A stretch of 64,000 nt of DNA. It comes from an uncultured Verrucomicrobiae bacterium. Lineage in GTDB: Bacteria; Verrucomicrobiota; Verrucomicrobiia; Limisphaerales; JAFGQR01. The notes beneath the pieces are model-generated. The model ran no database searches and was not told the DNA's origin. It worked only from the letters and a program-made list of their open reading frames with translations. The stretch covers positions 42,115 through 106,114 of the forward strand of contig CAWBHS010000009.1 in NCBI GenBank assembly GCA_963788655.1, given 5' to 3'. The number at the start of each line of letters is the position of its first letter. The stretch's first letter is position 1. This document shows, piece by piece, positions 39,527 to 49,018 of the stretch. Position numbers and translations under genes: made by a program.

Positions 39527-41642
39527 GATGTCACTTCTGCTACGGTTGCCGGCCGGCGGGCGAGCCAGCCAGCCAACCAGGATTCCACGAACAACACCAC
39601 TATAGCCGCAACGATCAGCCAGCGCCACAGCTTCTGATGGTTCTCCAACTCGGCGTTGAGCAGGTGCGTTTTCCGCTTGGCTGCTCGCACGGCCGCAGTC
39701 GGCGTTTGATGTTCCATTGGCACGCCCAACCGTTCCAGTTCATCGAAGGGCAGGGGAGCAGTGCGGCTTTCGGCAGCGTCGAGGTTCACGGCAAATTGTA
39801 CGGGGGGTTGCACCGACGTGATGGTGTAAATGCCGGGCAGTGCGTCTGCGAAAAGTCGGATTCGTTGGAACTCAGTTGCGCCGTCGAACCATCGGGCAGA
39901 CGAACGGTCCAGCCGGCATTCGTCGAATTGGCCAACGAGCGCAGCGGGATCACGTCGCCCACAAAAAACTGCGGGCGGCGGCGGCGGCGTGCCGCCGCTC
40001 AATTCGAGCAGCGAATAGAGCAGCGGAACGAATTTCGAACTGAGCGCCAATTGGCTTTCGGCCGGCGGCCAGCCCGAGGCCAGCACGAGCAACCGGCCTT
40101 TGCCGACCGGCACTTCGAACAACGCTGCATCGCCGGTATCGAATTTCGCCAGTACCCGCGCATCCGGAATCGCATGCCGCATCTACGCGGCGGTATTTCC
40201 AGAAATGAATCTTGGTGAAATCGCTGTAGCGCGGATCGGCGAACGGGGTCGAGCAGCGGATGTTTGAAATCAATCTCCGCCAACATCGCGTAATTCTTTA
40301 CGGTAGCTTCCTCGACGGGAATACGATCCACTTCCAGTATCCTTGCCAGGGCGGGCGCGCAGTTGGTGCCGGTGACGGAGAACAAAACCGTTTTGCCTTC
40401 GACCATCAAACGGCGCAGCACCCCGGCTTGCGTTTCTGGCAACGGCGCGGTGGCGATCACCAGAGCTACGTTCTCCAACTCGGAAGGCTGAATTGGGTCG
40501 TCGGGTTTGTGCGCGAGGACTTCCACCGCTTGCCGGCGGGTTTCCTGAAAGGCGCGTTGCAGGAAGTAGAGCGGTTGCTTGGTATCTTCGGACGAGTCCG
40601 TTCCTAAATACAGAACCCGGTTCTGCGCGGGTTTCGGCGGGATGACGAACACGGTGTTGTCAAAATCCTCGGTGTCGCCGCGCAGCAGCAGTCGGTTCGG
40701 TGTCGAATTAGTCGGTGGTTCGGGAGCGGGCGTGACGCGCGTTTGGCCGGGCGGCACATAAACATCCACGGCGGCGCCGGCGAAGGTTTTGCCGTCGGCG
40801 CCCGCCCAGCCGATTTGGAATTGTTCGCGGTGCGAATCCGACGCGTTGCTCACCCGCACGCGCAAGGTGGGCTTGGGAGACTTGGGATCGGCCTCGTCAG
40901 CTTCAGGGCGCAACTGGAGACCGGCATTGACCGATTGTTTGACTTTGACCGATTCGAGTGTCAGTTCGACATCGCGCGGCCACTCGTAAGCTTGTAAGGG
41001 CCCAAGCCGGCTGCCGGATTGGAGGTCGCTAATCAAGACGATTTGGCGCGGGCCAAAGGTGGGTTTGTCATCGGCTTCCTCCAGGGCTTCGGCGGCGGTG
41101 ATCAGCGCCTGGCCCATCTGCGTGTCGGACCAATCCGGGGACGCCTCGGACAACCGCCCCACCGCCAGGCCGACCCGGTCTCCGACGGACGCGGCATTCC
41201 ATTGGGCGAAGGTGACCAGCCGATTGACCCGCTGGCCGAACGTAAACACCGCCACCTGGTCGCCCGGCTTGGTTTGACGCAAAATGGTTTCGGCTTTTGC
41301 CCGGGCGTCGGGCCAGAGGTTTCCGCGTCGCATGCTGGCGCTGTTGTCCACCAGCAGGACCATACGTTTGGCCGTGTTATTTGAAGCGGGATTGCTGGCG
41401 CCGGTTTTGATGAAGGGCCGCGCAAAACCGAAGGCCAGCAGCGCCAGCACGGCGCAACGCAGCAACAGCAGGAGAATGTGTTCAAGCCGGCTGCGCCGGG
41501 TGAGCCGCGGCGGACTGGGCAGTAGAAACATGAGCGAGCTGAACGCCGTGCGGTTCCGCGTGGTGCGCCGAATTAGGTGGAACACCACCGGCAGCGCGAT
41601 GGCCAATCCACCCAGCAGGAACAATGGCGCAAGAAAACTCAT
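39523..41642 (-). CDS. BatA N-terminal / VWA domain protein, frameshifted around 39850-40260
   Basis: MSFLAPLFLLGGLAIALPVVFHLI...FSSLMFL; LVDNSASM MIDAS motif; LISDLQ; C terminus LWRWLIVAAIVVLFVESWLA. Confidence 0.9.
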
Positions 41643-42592
41643 GCGGACACCTGGCGTTTGAAGCGTTTCACTTTGCGGCTCCGGTGCATGCGTTCGCGCA
41701 GGAAATCGAACAGCGCCAGTTCGAGCGGTTGGTTGGTGGCAACCCGATAATAGCCGGCGCCGAGTTTCTGGCAGGCGGCGCGAATGGCGTCGCAGTGCGC
41801 GTCGAGTTTGCGCAGATACGTTTTGCGGGTGCTGCCGGGATCAATGAAGAAATCGCGACCGGATTCCAAGTCGTAAAACATCGCGGCCTGGTCGAAGTCA
41901 AACGAAACCTCCGCCGGATCGAGCAGGTGAAAGAGCAGTACCTCGTGACCGCAAGCGGTGAGACCCAGGAGTTGTTTTTCGAGGTTTTCAATCGGCGCCA
42001 ACAGGTCGGAAATCAGCACCATCAGGCCACGCTTGCGCACGATTTCCACGATCCGTTGCAGCGGCGCGGCGAGATCCGTCGCCCGACCCCCAGCGGTCTT
42101 TTCCAAGGCCAACATCAAGTGCCGCAAATGGCCGGTGCGGTGGCGCGCGGGCAGGTAATCGCGGATTTGTTCGTCAAAGGTGAGCAGGCCGACGGCGTCG
42201 CCTTGCAGGTAAAGAAAGTAAGCCAGTGTTGCCGCCAGCGTGTTCGCGTATTGCGCCTTGGTGTAACCGGTCGAGCCATAAGTCATCGAGCGGCTGTTGT
42301 CGGCGAGCAGGTGACAGCGCAGATTGGTTTCGTCTTCGAACTTCTTGATGAAGTAACGGTCGCTGCGGGCAAAGAGCCGCCAGTCAAGATAACGGGGATC
42401 GTCGCCGGGCGTGTATTGGCGGTATTCGGTGAACTCGACCGAAAACCCGTGATACGGGCTGCGATGGATGCCGCTCCAAAAGCCTTCGACAACCACCCGC
42501 GCGCGCAACTCGAGGTTGCGGATGCTCATCAGCGTCTGCGGATCGATGAGCGCGGACTTGGCGTGCGAAGGATGGGGCGGAGCCATCGTCAT
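41639..42592 (-). CDS. DUF58 domain protein
   Basis: GIHRSPYHGFSVEFTEYRQYTPGDDPRYLDWR, KKFEDETNL, DNSRSM. Confidence 0.95.
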   Translation of the reverse strand: MTMAPPHPSHAKSALIDPQTLMSIRNLELRARVVVEGFWSGIHRSPYHGFSVEFTEYRQYTPGDDPRYLDWRLFARSDRYFIKKFEDETNLRCHLLADNSRSMTYGSTGYTKAQYANTLAATLAYFLYLQGDAVGLLTFDEQIRDYLPARHRTGHLRHLMLALEKTAGGRATDLAAPLQRIVEIVRKRGLMVLISDLLAPIENLEKQLLGLTACGHEVLLFHLLDPAEVSFDFDQAAMFYDLESGRDFFIDPGSTRKTYLRKLDAHCDAIRAACQKLGAGYYRVATNQPLELALFDFLRERMHRSRKVKRFKRQVSA

Positions 42593-43637
42593 GAGGCGAG
42601 CGGAGTCTTGACGGTTTCCAATAATCGTTTGGTAACGGTTTCGACGGTCACGCCTTCCGCCTCGGCCCGGTAATTGAGCAGGATGCGGTGACGTAACGCC
42701 GGGTAGGCCAGTGCCTGAATGTCTTCCAACGTCACGTGCGCCCGGCCGTGGAACAACGCTCGCGCCTTGCCCGCCAGCACCAGGAATTGTCCGGCGCGGG
42801 TGCCGGCGCCCCAACTGACCCATTCGTTGACGAAGTCCGGCGTGCCTGCTTGCTGCGGTCGCGAGGCGGCGGCCAACCGCACGGCGTAGCGCACGACCTC
42901 CTCGGCCACGGGCACCTTGCGCACCAGTTCGTGAAACTTCAGCACGTCCTCGCCGGTGAACAGCGGTTCAATCGGCGCGGCGGGTCGAGCGGTGGTTTGC
43001 ACGCACCACGGCCACTTCGTCGTCCTCGGGCAGATAATCGATCACCACGTTGAACATGAACCGATCCAGTTGGGCTTCCGGCAACGGATAGGTGCCTTCC
43101 ATCTCGATGGGGTTCTGGGTGGCGAGGACAAAGAATGGTTCTTCGAGCGGATGGCGCACGCCGGCAGCGGTCACCTGATGTTCCTGCATGGCTTCCAGCA
43201 AGGCGGCCTGCGTCTTGGGCGGCGTGCGGTTGATTTCGTCGGCCAGAATCATGTTGGCGAATACCGGGCCGGGAATGAAGGCCATCTTCCGGTCCGCCGC
43301 CGGTTTCCTGAAGAATCTCAGTGCCGGTGATGTCCGCCGGCATGAGGTCGGGCGTGAACTGGATGCGCTGGAACTTCAGATGGAATATGCGCGCGATGGA
43401 TTTCACGAGCAGCGTCTTGGCCAGGCCCGGCGCGCCGGTGATCAGGCAATGGCCGCCCGCCAACAAGGCGATGAGGATTTGCTCGATCACGTCCCGCTGG
43501 CCAACGATGACCTTGGCCAGTTCGGCTTCGATGCGCGCGCGGCCGGCGTTGAGTTGTTCGACGGTTGCGCGGTCGGCGGCGTGGGCGGTGGAAACTGTTT
43601 TTTCCGCAACAGGATTATCAGGGGTGGTAAAGCTCAT
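42589..43637 (-). CDS. moxR: MoxR-family AAA+ ATPase, frameshifts near 43300 and 43000
   Basis: GAPGLAKT Walker [62 protein letters not shown]. Confidence 0.95.
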
Positions 43638-43642
43638 GGTGA

Positions 43643-44494
43643 TTAGTGGGTCATGGCGTAAAAGACGACGTTGACGGCAAGCGGGTAGGCAATCTTCTCG
43701 GAGAAGTGCTCGAAGTAATAGTGGTTGTCGCCTTCCCATTCCCAACCGTCGCCGTTGTCGGTGTTGTGGGTGGCGAACACCATGATGCGGCCCTGGTCGT
43801 CGAAGATGGCCCGATGGTGTACTTCGTGGGCGTCGGGGCGTTCCCAGGTGACCCCCGTGTATTCGCTTTCGGTGCCGGTTTGGACGTTCGGGATCTGGCC
43901 TTTGGATTTGATGTCGAAGACGCAGTGGTAAAGCATGTTGGTCAGCGGCAGTTCGACAAAACTGCGGTCGCGAAAGACCTTCTTCATCTGGTTCTCCATA
44001 CTGTCCCATTCGCTTTCGCCCCAGAAGTCGTCGAGCCACAAAAAACCGCCGTTGAGCAGATACTTGCGCAAGGCAGCCGCTTCGTCGTCGTCGAGATAAA
44101 GGCTGCCGGGCTCGACCATGTAAATGAACGGATAGTCGGTCAGATGTTTGTCCGTGAGCCGCAGGAAGCGCCCGTTGGGATCGACTTTCAGGGCGGTCAT
44201 TTGTTGCAAGCGATAGGAGAGATTGAGATCGCTGTCGGGTGCGTCGGTGTCCCAGGGTGCGCCCCGGCTGTAAGGCAGACTATCGCGCTTGATGCGGGCG
44301 AAAGTGAACACGTCCTTTTCGAAGCCGAACAGGTTGGTCCAGTTCGGCGTCTCGTAACCGTGTTGGGGAATGTCGCGCGGGGTTTGGTATTGATCGTTGT
44401 CGCGGTAATAATACCCCCGGCCATAACGGCGTTGGGCGAAGCCGCTGCTGGTGGCGAGCAGGAGGAGGAGAAGAAGTAAAGTGAGCGGTTTCAT
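43643..44494 (-). CDS. DUF4159 domain exported protein
   Basis: [56 protein letters not shown]. Confidence 0.92.
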
Positions 44495-44506
44495 ACGTCA
44501 AAACCA

Positions 44507-45883
44507 ATGGCAATCTCCGTCTTTTGTCCGTTCGCACCAAGGCCACACGATGAACTGAATGCGTCCAACATTTCAAACCAGCGGAATGCAATTCTCCCTC
44601 TCCCCCGGGGAGAGGGCCGGGGTGAGGGGGAAGGAACCGCACCGCTACGCATGACGCTTGAAAATTGCCGAGGGCGCTCGCCGTTCAATGCGCACCGGTT
44701 GCGCAGGTCGAACGCGCCGTTCCCCCTCACCCTAACCCTCTCCCTGGGGGAGAGGGAACCGCAGGCGGACGATGCGAGAAGTTTGCAGGAAGCAACTGCA
44801 ATCTCCGTCTTTTGTCCGTTCGCACCAAGGCCGCACGATGAACTGAATGCGTCCAATATTTCAAACCAGCGGAATGCAATTCTCCCTCTCCCCGCAGGAG
44901 AGGGCCGGGGTGAGGGGGAAGAGAACTTCCGACTTGCCGAACACGCCGACTTCGGCAGAATGCCGCCATGACTCCGCCCAAGTTCACGAAGATCGCCCGC
45001 ACTCTTCGTAAGCGCGACACGTGGGCTGAACAACTTCTTTGGAAGTGGCTTCGTGATCGGCGATTCTCCGCATACAAATTCCGCCGACAGCATCCCTATC
45101 CTCCCTACATACTCGATTTCTTTTGTCTGGAAGCCTCGCTCAATATCGAACTCGACGGCGGGCAGCACGGAACGCCGGAAACCAAAAAGCGCGACATGGA
45201 ACGCGATGCTTGGCTGGCGGCTCGTGGAATCAAAGTGCTTCGCTTTTGGAATGGCCGGTTGCGACGTGAAAAAGATGTCGTCCGGGACGCCATTTGGAAC
45301 GCGTTGCAGGAGCGGGCGCCCCAACCCATGCCGGAGTATTGCCGGCCGATGCAGCCAGGAGTGAAACCACGCGGAGTTTAGTGATCGCGCGCTGTTCCCC
45401 CTCACCCTAACCCTCTCCCTGAGGGAGAGGGAACAGCAGTCGAGCGATGCGAGTTGTTCGTAATTACCAGTGGCAATCTCCGCCTTTTGGCCGTTTGAAC
45501 CAAGGCCGCATGATGAACCGAACCTGTCCAGCATCTCAAACCAGCAGAGTGCAATTCTCCCTCTCCCCCAGGGAGAGGGCCGGGGTGAGGGGGAAGGAGG
45601 CGTACGGCTATCCGATGCACTTGAAAATCGCTGAGGGCAATCGTTGTTCAATGCGGACCGGCTGCGCAGGTCGAACGCGCCGTTCCCCCTCGCCCTGACC
45701 CTCTCCCTCAGGGAGAGGGAACAGAAGTCGGATGATGCGAGTCGTTCGTAAAGACTAATTGCATGTCTCGCCCTTTGTCCGTTCGCACCGAGGCCACACG
45801 ATGAACTGAACGCGTTCAACATTTCCAACCAGCGGAGTCCGATTCTCCCTCTCCCCCAGGGAGAGGGCCGGGGTGAGGGGGAA
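44507..45883. repeat. Array of seven alternating CCCTCTCCC-type palindromes with repeated spacers (period about 290 bp) around a DUF559 gene
   Basis: Palindromes at 44595, 44720, 44883, 45395, 45558, 45683 and 45846; spacer GCAATCTCCGTCTTTTGTCCGTTCGCACCAAGGCC...AAACCAGCGGAATGCAATT repeated four times with variation. Confidence 0.95.
44968..45381 (+). CDS. DUF559 (Vsr-like) endonuclease, antisense to the operon
   Basis: ARTLRKRDTWAEQLLWKWLR, KFRRQHP, YILDFFC, IELDGGQH, DMERDAWL, VLRFWN. Confidence 0.93.
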   Translation: MTPPKFTKIARTLRKRDTWAEQLLWKWLRDRRFSAYKFRRQHPYPPYILDFFCLEASLNIELDGGQHGTPETKKRDMERDAWLAARGIKVLRFWNGRLRREKDVVRDAIWNALQERAPQPMPEYCRPMQPGVKPRGV

Positions 45884-45938
45884 GGAGACGCCTGCCCACC
45901 AGTGATAGGCACTTCACTCCGACCTGTGTGAACGGCGC

Positions 45939-48621
45939 TCATGTTTGGGGCTTGTTTTTCGCCGCGACACCGTCTTTTAGGACGGGGGCGGCCCGGTTCA
46001 TTTCCAACAGTAATCGAAGCGCGGCGCGGAAGCGCGGAGCGTCTTCGAGGGCTTGCAACAGGTGGCGTTTGGCGGAATGGTCGCCGATCTGATTGAGCAA
46101 ACGCGCCAAGTTGTAATGGAGTTCCACCGGATTGGCGGGATCAAGTTTCAGCAGGGCCTGATATGCCTCGATGGCCGGTCGCGGTTCGCCCAGGGCCTCG
46201 CTGGCTTCCGCCAGGTAACGATGCGGCGGCGGCACGAGCGGATTGACGGCGAGATAACGGCGCGCATTCAGCGCTACGGCGGGCCAGTCTTTGGCGGCGG
46301 CGTCCAGTTCCATCAGGCGCAGATAGGCGTCGGTGGCGGCGGCGTCACGGGCGGCGAGTTGCTTCAGTGCCTGATGTTCGAGATTGGTTTCGTTCAGTTC
46401 CCGATGGGTCTGGGCCAGCATCCCGTACGCGTTGTCGGGGCCAAGGTAGTCCGGACATAGCTTGATGAGGGTTTCGAGCGGTGCTTTGGCTTCCTGCCAT
46501 TGCCTGCCGGCAACCAACGTCTGCGCGCGATGCATCAAAGCATAGAAGTTTGTGGGATGAGCACTGGCCCACGTGGCCAATGCCTCGGGATCTAGTGCAG
46601 CGCGTTGTGGGGCAGTCGGTGCGTTTCGACGAGATTCCCCGTTCGCGCGGCCTTGGGCGAGTTGCTCCATCGGGGGCTTTTCCCAATCGAGCGCCGGCCC
46701 CAGTGCTTTGGCGCGTTCCCGGGCAAACGCGGCGAAGTCTTTTTCCAGTGTGGCCATGGGTGCGGTGTGTGCCTCGATGGCGTGATTGATTTCGGTGCCG
46801 TCCGCCAGGTCGTGCAATATGGCTTTCAGTTGCTCCAGGCCGAAACGCTTTACCAAAAACTCCACCACCAGCGACGATTCGTAGTACGCCAAACTGAAGA
46901 TGCTCCGGCGTGGGCGGTGCGAGAAAGGCGCTGCTCAAATCGGCAATGGGCGTCAGTCCATCATCAAGGACCATTTCCCGATACCGCGGTGTCATACGTT
47001 GGCCCCAAGTCGGATTGGTCTGGCTTTCCTCATAGACCGAAATGCCTTCGCTTAGCCAACGGGGCATTTTGTTGCGGGTCAATTGCAGCGTGACGACATG
47101 ACAAAACTCGTGCCAGAGCACCGCCTGCCAATTGGCCGCGTGCGCTGATGGCGAGGCGGGACTGTTGGCAGTGATCACCCGGCCAAAGCAGACGCCGAGA
47201 TAGCCGGGGTTGTCCGGCATGCCGAACGTGCGCACGCCGAAATCCTTTGGATCGGGGAAGATCTCCACCACCGTGGGCTGCTTGATTTCGAGCCCGTATT
47301 TCGCGCACAGGTTGCTCTTGGCTTGGTCCAGCAACGCCAACGCGCGCTGCCCGTAAATGTCTGCTTCGTCCCCCTTCATCCGCACGATGAAATCGCGGTT
47401 GGTGACGGTTTGGAACTTCTGCATGGTTTCGCGCAGGGTGACCAGGTTGTAAGCCGTGACATCGTAGCCGTCCTCATCGTGAACTTTCTCCGCCATTGCC
47501 CAACCTTCTGCTTCGTCGCCCAAACGCAGCAGGTCCTGCGCAAGTTGGGCTTTGGCGGGCAGGTAATCGGCGTCAAACGCCAGCGCCTGGCGTTGGTGCG
47601 CCGCGCCTTCAGCGAACCGGTATTTTTGCGACAGCTTTAGGCCAATCAAATACTCGACACGCGGATTGGTCTTCCAAAAGCGCAAGGCGGTTTCGCGGGC
47701 GGCTTGCTCTTTGTCCGGGTGGTTTTCCAAATGTTCGATCACCGCCTGGTAGGCCCAGGCGTCGGGGTGCCAGGGATTAACCTCGCGAATACGGTCCAGC
47801 ACCTTGGTGGCGCCGGCATATTCCTCCGCGTCGATCAAATGGTCCACCATCAACAGCAGACTGGGCACGTGATTGGTGTTCTGGTTCAGCGCGGCGGCAA
47901 GTTCGCCCTGCATCTGGATCTGTTCGCTGGGCGCATAAGCGCGGGCCAGACCGTAGTGGAAGTCAGGGTCGTCAGGGAAACGCTTGAGCCCTTCGCGATA
48001 CACTTTGGCGGCCAGTTCAAAGTCGTGTTTGTCTAAAGACAGTTCACCGCTGGCCAGGTAAGCCTCGCGCAAATCCGGATCCTCGCGTTTGGCCGAATCA
48101 TACACCTGTTCGAGAATCAGTCGCGGATCGGCGCCCAACAGCAAGAGCGTCCGGCCAAAAGCCAGCCGGTTGACCGGATCCCGATAGGCCCAGGGGCGGG
48201 TCCGGATCAGCAGGTTGATTTGCCGCAGCATGCTCTCGGCCTCGTCGGTCTGACCGTTGCTCAAATACACTTCCCGACCCAGCAGGCGCAGCCGGATGCT
48301 CGTGGAGTATTGCTCGAGCGCATTGGTGATGGCCGACCGCGCCTCGGCATATCGGCCCAGCGTGAGCAACGTTTTGGCGCGCACCAACCGCCAGTCCTCC
48401 TGATACCGGTCATTGCGAATCGCCTCCTCCGCCATCGCCAAAGCATTGGTGTAGTGGCCGGTACGGAACTGGTCCCAAGCGTCATCCGGATCGGCGCCGT
48501 GAACGGCGGTTGCGGCGACTCCGAGGCCGGTGACCAAAGTCAGAACGAAGGCGACGATGGCCTGCCGCCAGCAGCAAATCGCCCCGCAAGTGCGGTTTGC
48601 GTTCTGACTAATCTCGAACAT
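45939..48621 (-). CDS. TPR protein with peptidase MA (HEXXH) domain, first gene of the MoxR operon; frameshift near 46890
   Basis: TPR helices; LGVCFGRVIT, VLWHEFCHVVTL, PRWLSEGISVYE; continues as AYYESSLVVEFL in ORF 45939-46892. Confidence 0.9.
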
Positions 48622-49018
48622 GCCTGTATCTAAACCCATTTGCTCTGATAACACAAGGACGGCTACCGGGAATGTTTGGCTTTCCCCGGCCCATCATCCA
48701 TCGCCGGCATTCCTTCAATCTCAATCAATGTCTTCACATTGGAACGCTGTGGGATGGGCCAACGGCGATCCGATCTTGTCCGGCAGGATGTCACAATCCC
48801 GGCGCGGGTCAAACTCGGAACCCAAGGAGAGAGGATGGGGAATCCGAAGGTCGAAGGCCGAAATCCGAAAGAAATCCGAAATCCCGATAGCAGCTCGGTT
48901 CTTATTTCTGCGACGTTTCAACTCCTCCACGGCCGCTCCGTTTCGGTTGACTGTCGCCAGCCCTCCTCGTTAGTCTGTTGGCTTGAATTAACCAATAACA
49001 ACCAGCTTCTAAGTGTGT

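Follow-up and report, generated by a model that had tools for sequence, protein, structure and literature searches.

The window analysed here is a 64,000-nt stretch of contig CAWBHS010000009.1 (assembly GCA_963788655.1) from an uncultured Verrucomicrobiae bacterium, whose genome, a metagenome-assembled genome of 8.96 Mb in 115 contigs (59.6% G+C, 86% completeness, 5.6% contamination), is referred to below as G000. The minus strand of the window carries a MoxR/DUF58/BatA operon, and between two co-directional genes of this operon, one encoding a protein with tetratricopeptide repeats (TPR) and a peptidase-MA domain and the other a DUF4159 protein, lies an insert that consists of an array of BoxC repeat arms and a DUF559 gene nested among them. 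A single minus-strand open reading frame (ORF) of 483 codons (44491..45942, 1452 nt, ATG start), here called the bridge ORF, crosses the insert from the end of the TPR-peptidase gene to the start of the DUF4159 gene (Table 1).

The ORF listing, the translation and the letters of both junctions bear out the first-pass annotation of this region, which had reported such a frame with ATGA overlaps at both ends. On the coding strand, the upstream junction reads CCCCAAACATGAGCGCC (in longer context, AAACATGAGCG), the end of the TPR-peptidase (...KPQT*) overlapping the ATG of the bridge ORF, and the downstream junction reads GACGTATGAAACCGC (in longer context, GACGTATGAAACCG), the TGA of the bridge ORF overlapping the start of DUF4159 (MKPL...). 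The repeat-translation peptides that had been quoted for the product, PSPSPRPSPWGRG and SLSLRERVRVRG, are present in the translation, and the reported 1.45-kb palindrome array with an antisense DUF559 gene was recovered as seven alternating arms and a significant Pfam match. Over 44491-45942, the bridge frame contains no stop codons besides its own terminator, compared with 10 and 14 in the other minus-strand frames and 15, 6 and 15 in the plus-strand frames. When the ORF is divided into eight segments, one of the three minus-strand frames is open in each (two in the last segment), and the open frames are all in phase.

Table 1 Features of the bridge locus and its operon, and the other exact two-sided bridges of the same genome (positions in the window unless a contig is given).
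Feature	Position	Strand	Remarks
Relay/bridge ORF	44491..45942	-	ATG 45942-45940, TGA 44493-44491; candidate relay; log-odds/codon -0.216 vs gene median +0.187
ATGA overlap, TPR-peptidase stop and bridge ORF start	45939..45942	-	ancestral DUF4159 start context, as judged from the ATGA junction here in relatives
ATGA overlap, bridge ORF stop and DUF4159 start	44491..44494	-	second tetranucleotide copy
BoxC/TMECO arm 1	44595..44632	+	B type, CCGGGG; compared with Table 1 of PMC4666352
BoxC arm 2	44720..44757	-	A type, TTAGGG, inverted; arm profile; Table 1 of PMC4666352
BoxC arm 3	44883..44920	+	B type; arm profile
DUF559 gene (Vsr/PD-(D/E)XK-like)	44968..45381	+	within array, antisense to operon; Pfam PF04480 E=4e-33
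BoxC arm 4	45395..45432	-	A type; arm profile
BoxC arm 5	45558..45595	+	B type; arm profile
BoxC arm 6	45683..45720	-	A-like; arm profile
BoxC arm 7	45846..45883	+	B type; arm profile
DUF4159 gene (downstream)	43643..44494	-	Pfam PF13709 E=5.9e-46; intact N-terminal signal-like MKPLTLLLL; orthologues found
TPR + peptidase-MA gene (upstream)	45939..48654	-	read in two frames; frameshift near 46886-46911
MoxR AAA+ gene	42589..43637	-	two apparent frameshifts, near 43279-43325 and 42972-43027
DUF4159/MoxR junction			TAA, 5 nt, ATG
MoxR/DUF58 junction	about 42590		...TCATGACG
DUF58/BatA junction	41639-41642		ATGA overlap
BatA/next gene junction			TTGA
Junction at gene ending 38132			GATGAC
Bridge on C49	C49:41937-42782		281 aa; GTGA/ATGA; 4 arms
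Bridge on C72	C72:232288-232971		4 arms
Bridge on C6	C6:24256-24615		119 aa
Bridge on C27	C27:6723-7064		two-sided

The insert is built from seven 38-nt arms that alternate in orientation, the spacings from start to start being 124 and 164 nt. These arms make up approximately three and a half elements of 201 nt with inverted arms; on each side of DUF559, an 87-nt linker joins two of these, the order from left to right being truncated element, linker, inverted-arm element, DUF559, element, linker, element and, finally, 59 nt of unique sequence. Four 228-nt copies within the insert lie in register, 288, 675 and 288 nt apart, every spacing being a multiple of 3. The arms follow the 34-37-nt BoxC motif CCCTC(T/G)CCC-loop-GGGAGAGGG-(CCG/TTA)GGGTGAGGG, with A and B types alternating, and because they match the sequences in Table 1 of PMC4666352, they are, by sequence comparison, the BoxC/PIT/TMECO repeat known from E. 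coli; when one arm was searched by BLAST, matches with 80-95% identity were found in 4365 of the 5426 complete E. coli genomes. A test for terminal inverted repeats and target-site duplication, as in MITEs (miniature transposable elements bounded by inverted repeats), showed that the array ends inside a unit and that ATGA alone is duplicated. A scan of 44300-46100 against Rfam returned no family above threshold (miRNA-like hairpin matches reached at most 36 bits, compared to gathering scores of 37-168), and a promoter and terminator scan of the insert predicted no terminator-like sites and two weak promoter-like sites.

The nested DUF559 gene scores 114 bits, above the gathering score, and covers positions 3-108 of the 109 in the PF04480 model, i.e. 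the full length of the domain. Three of the four DUF559 matches in the genome (window 44968-45381, C37:10936-11193 and C37:120-431) are located between inverted BoxC arms, with the nearest arm 1-61 nt away on each side, which suggests that DUF559 genes travel with BoxC repeats or use them. A literature search at the level of titles found nothing on an association of DUF559 with repeats.

The site is empty in relatives. The TPR-peptidase gene directly adjoins DUF4159 in all nine syntenic relatives from the same order, with an ATGA overlap in five of the nine, and among 36 syntenic metagenome loci there is no gap longer than about 175 nt, with ATGA at the stop in 25 (a count made by eye from the listing). 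The comparison with relatives lacking the insert that the first-pass annotation had proposed thus yields a plain ATGA junction in most of the 45 syntenic relatives and the insert in none of them, so that, as judged from this set, the insert is lineage-specific. Among the metagenome relatives, the closest DUF4159 is at most 77% identical, so that none of them yielded an independent, near-identical copy of the locus. Given the empty ATGA junctions in relatives, the ATG at 45942 is, by comparison, the former start context of DUF4159, and the insert is now bordered by the tetranucleotide on either side. Relatives also differ at this place in gene number: four of them (L002, L003, L004 and L007) have two or three tandem DUF4159 paralogues behind the TPR-peptidase gene, compared with one in this genome.

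Bridges of the same kind recur elsewhere. An nhmmer profile built from the seven window arms located 199 arms in 98 loci of G000, in arrays of up to 8 arms; 64 of the loci are two-arm pairs, 55 of which have the (-,+) arrangement less than 200 nt apart. Five loci in G000 are exact two-sided bridges, namely the window locus (on contig C9) and those on C49, C72, C6 and C27, and four more were found in the relative G016 (L074, with overlaps -4/-4; L075, -4/-1; L088, -4/-1; L091, -4/-4). Homology among the bridge loci ends at the arm doublet, the remainder being locus-specific. In addition, G000 has arrays coupled on one side, on C99, C3 and C59, which may be blurred by indels in the assembly. The C99 array (C99:24851-26767) has eight arms, its period being about 462 nt, and carries a sense ORF of 638 codons whose end is an ATGA on the next gene; in this ORF, the arms are read in a frame other than that of the bridge ORF (FPLTPALSLGERE / PSPRGEGQGEG).

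The frames of these loci were compared by a uniform pipeline, in which genes were called on 1.5-kb flanks and the frame open from the upstream stop through the element was scored as coupled (beginning on the upstream stop codon), other, or that of the upstream gene, the counts being tested against 1/3. Among 59 intergenic co-directional loci of G000, 21 open frames were coupled, 13 were other and 6 were in the upstream-gene frame (p = 0.0096). In three relatives, loci taken from pattern matches were examined (24 of G016, 20 of G003, with one counted twice, and 3 of G002); the corresponding numbers for the 28 intergenic co-directional ones among these were 13, 3 and 4 (p = 0.0037). In the controls, 375 arm-free gaps given a dummy element of 140 nt, there were 85 coupled, 89 other and 63 upstream-gene frames. 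Pooled over the four genomes, the coupled frame is significantly more frequent than in the controls (34/60 vs. 85/237; Fisher p = 0.0048). Similarly, open frames that end exactly in NTGA on the downstream start are more common in arm-containing gaps than in arm-free gaps (6/55 vs. 28/1192; Fisher p = 0.003), and copies of the unit found at the window locus that lie between co-directional genes are oriented in the sense direction in 9 cases and in the antisense direction in one (p = 0.02).

The arrangement resembles that of mycobacterial interspersed repetitive units (MIRUs). As cited in PMC3184786, Supply et al. (1997) described for MIRUs ORFs that overlap both neighbouring genes, tetranucleotide direct repeats and empty sites; in the account given in PMC12548453, MIRUs are mobile GC-rich repeats at start codons, with an internal ORF coupled to the gene at -4, a coupling thought to minimise the cost of insertion. 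According to the relevant passages of these two sources, the units measure 40-100 bp with a mini-ORF in each, and polycistronic transcription has been shown for a MIRU. The window locus shares with MIRUs the GC-rich, often tandem repeats with internal inverted repeats between co-directional operon genes, the ORF in gene direction whose ends overlap the neighbours, with -4 coupling to the downstream start, and the tetranucleotide direct repeats at the filled site (ATGA...ATGA), together with the empty ATGA junctions in relatives. The two are unrelated in sequence, so that the class is functional rather than one of homology, and the phylum here is Verrucomicrobiota. Furthermore, the window array has a period of 288 nt and one 1452-nt ORF, as opposed to a 40-100-bp unit with its own mini-ORF; this ORF also runs antisense through the nested DUF559 gene; and whereas co-transcription has been shown for a MIRU, the window locus is known from its sequence.

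Because its layout is the published layout of MIRUs, we favour the reading of the bridge ORF as a MIRU-like relay ORF made of BoxC repeats, to which we give about even credence; the next in rank is a chance by-product of repeat insertion, with an assembly artefact and a genuine gene trailing. A BoxC block with a DUF559 gene would have been inserted on the ancestral ATGA between the TPR-peptidase and DUF4159 genes and would now be flanked by the tetranucleotide on either side. The former start of DUF4159, still on the upstream stop, would then open the 483-codon frame that crosses the insert to the second ATGA, the present DUF4159 start. Given the ATGA overlaps and the open frame, ribosomes ending the TPR-peptidase gene could reinitiate at the first ATGA and translate the insert, in doing so opening its hairpins and protecting the RNA, until they terminate at the start of DUF4159. 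The junctions and the frame thus point to a bridge ORF that may be translated and to a hand-over of ribosomes that would preserve coupling and avoid polarity, the bridge peptide itself presumably being junk. Translation across the highly structured RNA that is predicted for this region appears plausible, and copies may persist at operon junctions since their frame is open, which would amount to a selective filter.

Other known systems share some of these properties. The alternation of palindromes, the occurrence of two spacer classes (124 and 164 nt) and the dispersal of inverted doublets are reminiscent of repetitive extragenic palindromes (REPs) and bacterial interspersed mosaic elements, and of the REPIN-RAYT system. 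We know of no description of REPs as translated relays. RAYT, a candidate partner of the arms, was rejected: for 10 of the 12 matches to PF01797 (Y1-transposase) in G000, the nearest arm is at least 4.7 kb away, and the other two are on arm-free contigs. In PMC10969869, where Ogata et al. (2000) are cited, Rickettsia palindromic elements are described as lying inside genes, to which they add a peptide segment; these, too, are palindromic repeats tolerated in translated sequence and stop-free in frame, whereas the window copy is a separate cistron between two genes. The leader-cistron or termination-reinitiation coupling at NUGA overlaps outlined in PMC12548453, in which the AUG that overlaps a UGA lets the terminating ribosome start again and an ORF of no function of its own can feed ribosomes to the next gene, corresponds to the proposed hand-over, but known relay ORFs are short compared with the 483 codons of the candidate relay. 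With regard to BoxC, an intrastrand-triplex repeat, the part of PMC4666352 that describes it gives 34-37-nt arms of A (TTAGGG) and B (CCGGGG) types in inverted A/B pairs, intergenic and marking variable regions in E. coli, all of which applies here as well; the differences are the abundance in this genome (approximately 199 arms in 98 loci), the frequent location on stop/start junctions with bridging frames, and the nested DUF559 genes. In many relatives' loci, BoxC doublets lie inside long ORFs that are open on both sides, as in the Rickettsia elements (L073, L082, L087, L095 and L100 in G016; L101, L104, L106, L111, L116, L118 and L128-L130 in G003), and on one G003 contig, arms occur about every 1 kb within an ORF of more than 3 kb.

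Several observations weigh against a relay and are compatible with another explanation, that the bridge ORF is a chance by-product of selfish repeat litter tolerated in an operon gap, which we consider a serious contender, somewhat behind the relay in probability. Under this explanation, the long ORF results from a stop-poor repeat frame, a period that is a multiple of 3 and the stop-poor antisense strand of a GC-rich gene, whereas the two ATGA are a 4-bp target duplication that left both genes intact, DUF4159 being translated independently or poorly. Much of the openness of the bridge frame can indeed be had without selection. Of 10 dispersed copies of the unit, 7 lack a stop in this frame; summed over the copies, it has 4 stops, compared to 8-17 in each of the other five frames, and the copies at the locus are in register since 288 and 675 are multiples of 3. 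Over DUF559, the bridge frame is the codon-aligned antisense, which can be closed only by TTA, CTA and TCA codons; these make up 0.0081 of codons, so that by our own arithmetic the chance of 137 open codons is about 0.33, and antisense ORFs of 277-349 aa are common in the window. A rough segment-phase estimate puts the chance of the whole arrangement at 4e-4 to 1e-3 per locus, which is not extreme for a locus picked post hoc from a very large scan. The family-wide tests are likewise divided. The proposal that in-operon arrays are open and frame-coupled more often than expected across the genome was favoured by the counts for the coupled frame and for NTGA ends but not by those for openness as such: a sense frame is open across the whole gap in 10/55 arm-containing and 217/1192 arm-free co-directional gaps of 300-2500 nt (approximately 18% each); whole-gap scoring with the first crude gene calls showed no preference (coupled 6, other 6, upstream-gene frame 2); gap length modulo 3 is flat at 14 NTGA/NTGA loci (5/5/4); and sense and antisense openness did not differ significantly, either in G000 (12 vs. 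6 of 67 loci) or in relatives (16 vs. 11 of 28; sign test about 0.23 by our own arithmetic). The coupled excess itself becomes weaker (14/29 in G000 and 8/13 in relatives) when loci where the open frame is that of the downstream gene are left out, and the gene calls came from our own crude codon-usage caller. Non-coding codon usage and flat substitutions fit a junk peptide but also absent translation, and a chance frame would show the same lack of a protein-like signal; the predicted RNA of the bridge ORF is very structured (-675 kcal/mol over 1452 nt); and the frameshift in the TPR-peptidase gene, if real, would leave no ribosome at the junction. For E. coli K-12, the part of PMC4666352 devoted to BoxC gives 23 copies, free of strand or operon bias, and no effect on expression is reported. 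A chance origin accounts less readily for the eight ORF segments, in each of which just one minus-strand frame (two in the last) is open and all are in phase, for the recurrence of two-sided bridges at four further loci of G000 and four of G016, and for the coupled-frame excess over controls (p about 0.005) with the 9:1 orientation bias.

The other two explanations are much less probable. An assembly artefact, whereby the true sequence has an indel or a stop in the interval, would be in keeping with the quality of the assembly, in which single-base indels are frequent: rpoB (C45:51013-54792) is split over three frames, 3 of about 12 AAA_3 (MoxR) domains are split, the MoxR gene with two frameshifts and the TPR-peptidase gene with one lie within 4 kb, and the bridge ORF itself contains 13 homopolymer runs of at least 5. 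The frameshift sites resemble single-base deletions outside long homopolymers, with approximately one indel per 1.5-2 kb in sampled genes. However, the four 228-nt copies align with 0 gap columns, two 300-nt copies are also gap-free and DUF559 is full length, a combination that checks nearly all of the length of the bridge ORF internally against relative indels. Because the copies align gap-free and DUF559 is intact, the bridge frame is probably real in the organism; moreover, random indels would destroy rather than make a long ORF, and an artefact is, in our view, improbable. Least probable by some distance is that the bridge ORF is a true gene for a repeat-rich protein with its own function, as the operon-style overlaps at both ends might suggest. 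The ORF has no Pfam match, its log-odds per codon (Table 1) falls short of the 5th percentile for called genes (0.072), and its G+C content at third codon positions is 0.62, compared to 0.69-0.77 in neighbouring genes. Differences between repeat copies are spread evenly over the codon positions (16/13/14, 15/17/17 and 16/13/16), the ORF is missing from all 45 syntenic relatives and DUF559 is antisense to one third of its length. A functional protein gene was therefore rejected on codon usage and the flat substitution pattern.

The first-pass annotation had counted five native junctions of the host operon with ATGA overlaps or near contact, which is roughly right, the junctions being ATGA or TTGA overlaps or a 5-nt spacer. 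Among element loci examined in relatives, 46 of 47 have co-directional flanks. In E. coli NZ_CP059723.1 (L134), a BoxC copy occupies the gap between two genes of the colanic-acid operon, cpsG, which ends 66 nt before it, and wcaJ, which starts 18 nt behind it; BoxC placement within operons thus occurs also in E. coli. A 12-copy subfamily in G000 (C8:73129, C49:233681, C62:133969, C72:331701, C73:11062, C76:2698 and six more positions) is a MITE of approximately 241 nt whose ends read TACTG...CAGTA, which probably duplicates a TA target and which encloses a BoxC arm pair; the arms thus occur as modules of at least two kinds of mobile element.

BoxC and the principle of the relay ORF are known already; what is new is their combination, the length of 483 codons in a single cistron, the passage through a nested antisense DUF559 gene, and the phylum. 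In a light literature search, neither a relay ORF made of BoxC nor a link between BoxC and DUF559 was found described. To our knowledge, BoxC, a pan-bacterial repeat, has been unexplained for 30 years, and DUF559 has likewise long been without a role. Speculatively, and with considerable doubt, BoxC in this verrucomicrobial order might be a mobile element adapted to operon stop/start junctions and gene interiors, transcription-oriented, stop-free and ribosome-relaying even over kilobase arrays, with the arm-nested DUF559 nuclease genes as a mobilising or homing partner. If the bridge ORF is due to chance, the locus amounts to common repeat litter, lying in a gap that tolerates it. Frames of this kind will be labelled as hypothetical proteins by gene callers and counted as genes in operon predictions. 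If, conversely, the bridge ORF is a relay, BoxC and DUF559 would gain a testable biology, and the MIRU principle, whereby selfish repeats survive in operons by keeping ribosome flow, would extend from 50-100-bp mycobacterial units to another phylum and to kilobase-sized arrays of BoxC, a far more widespread repeat.

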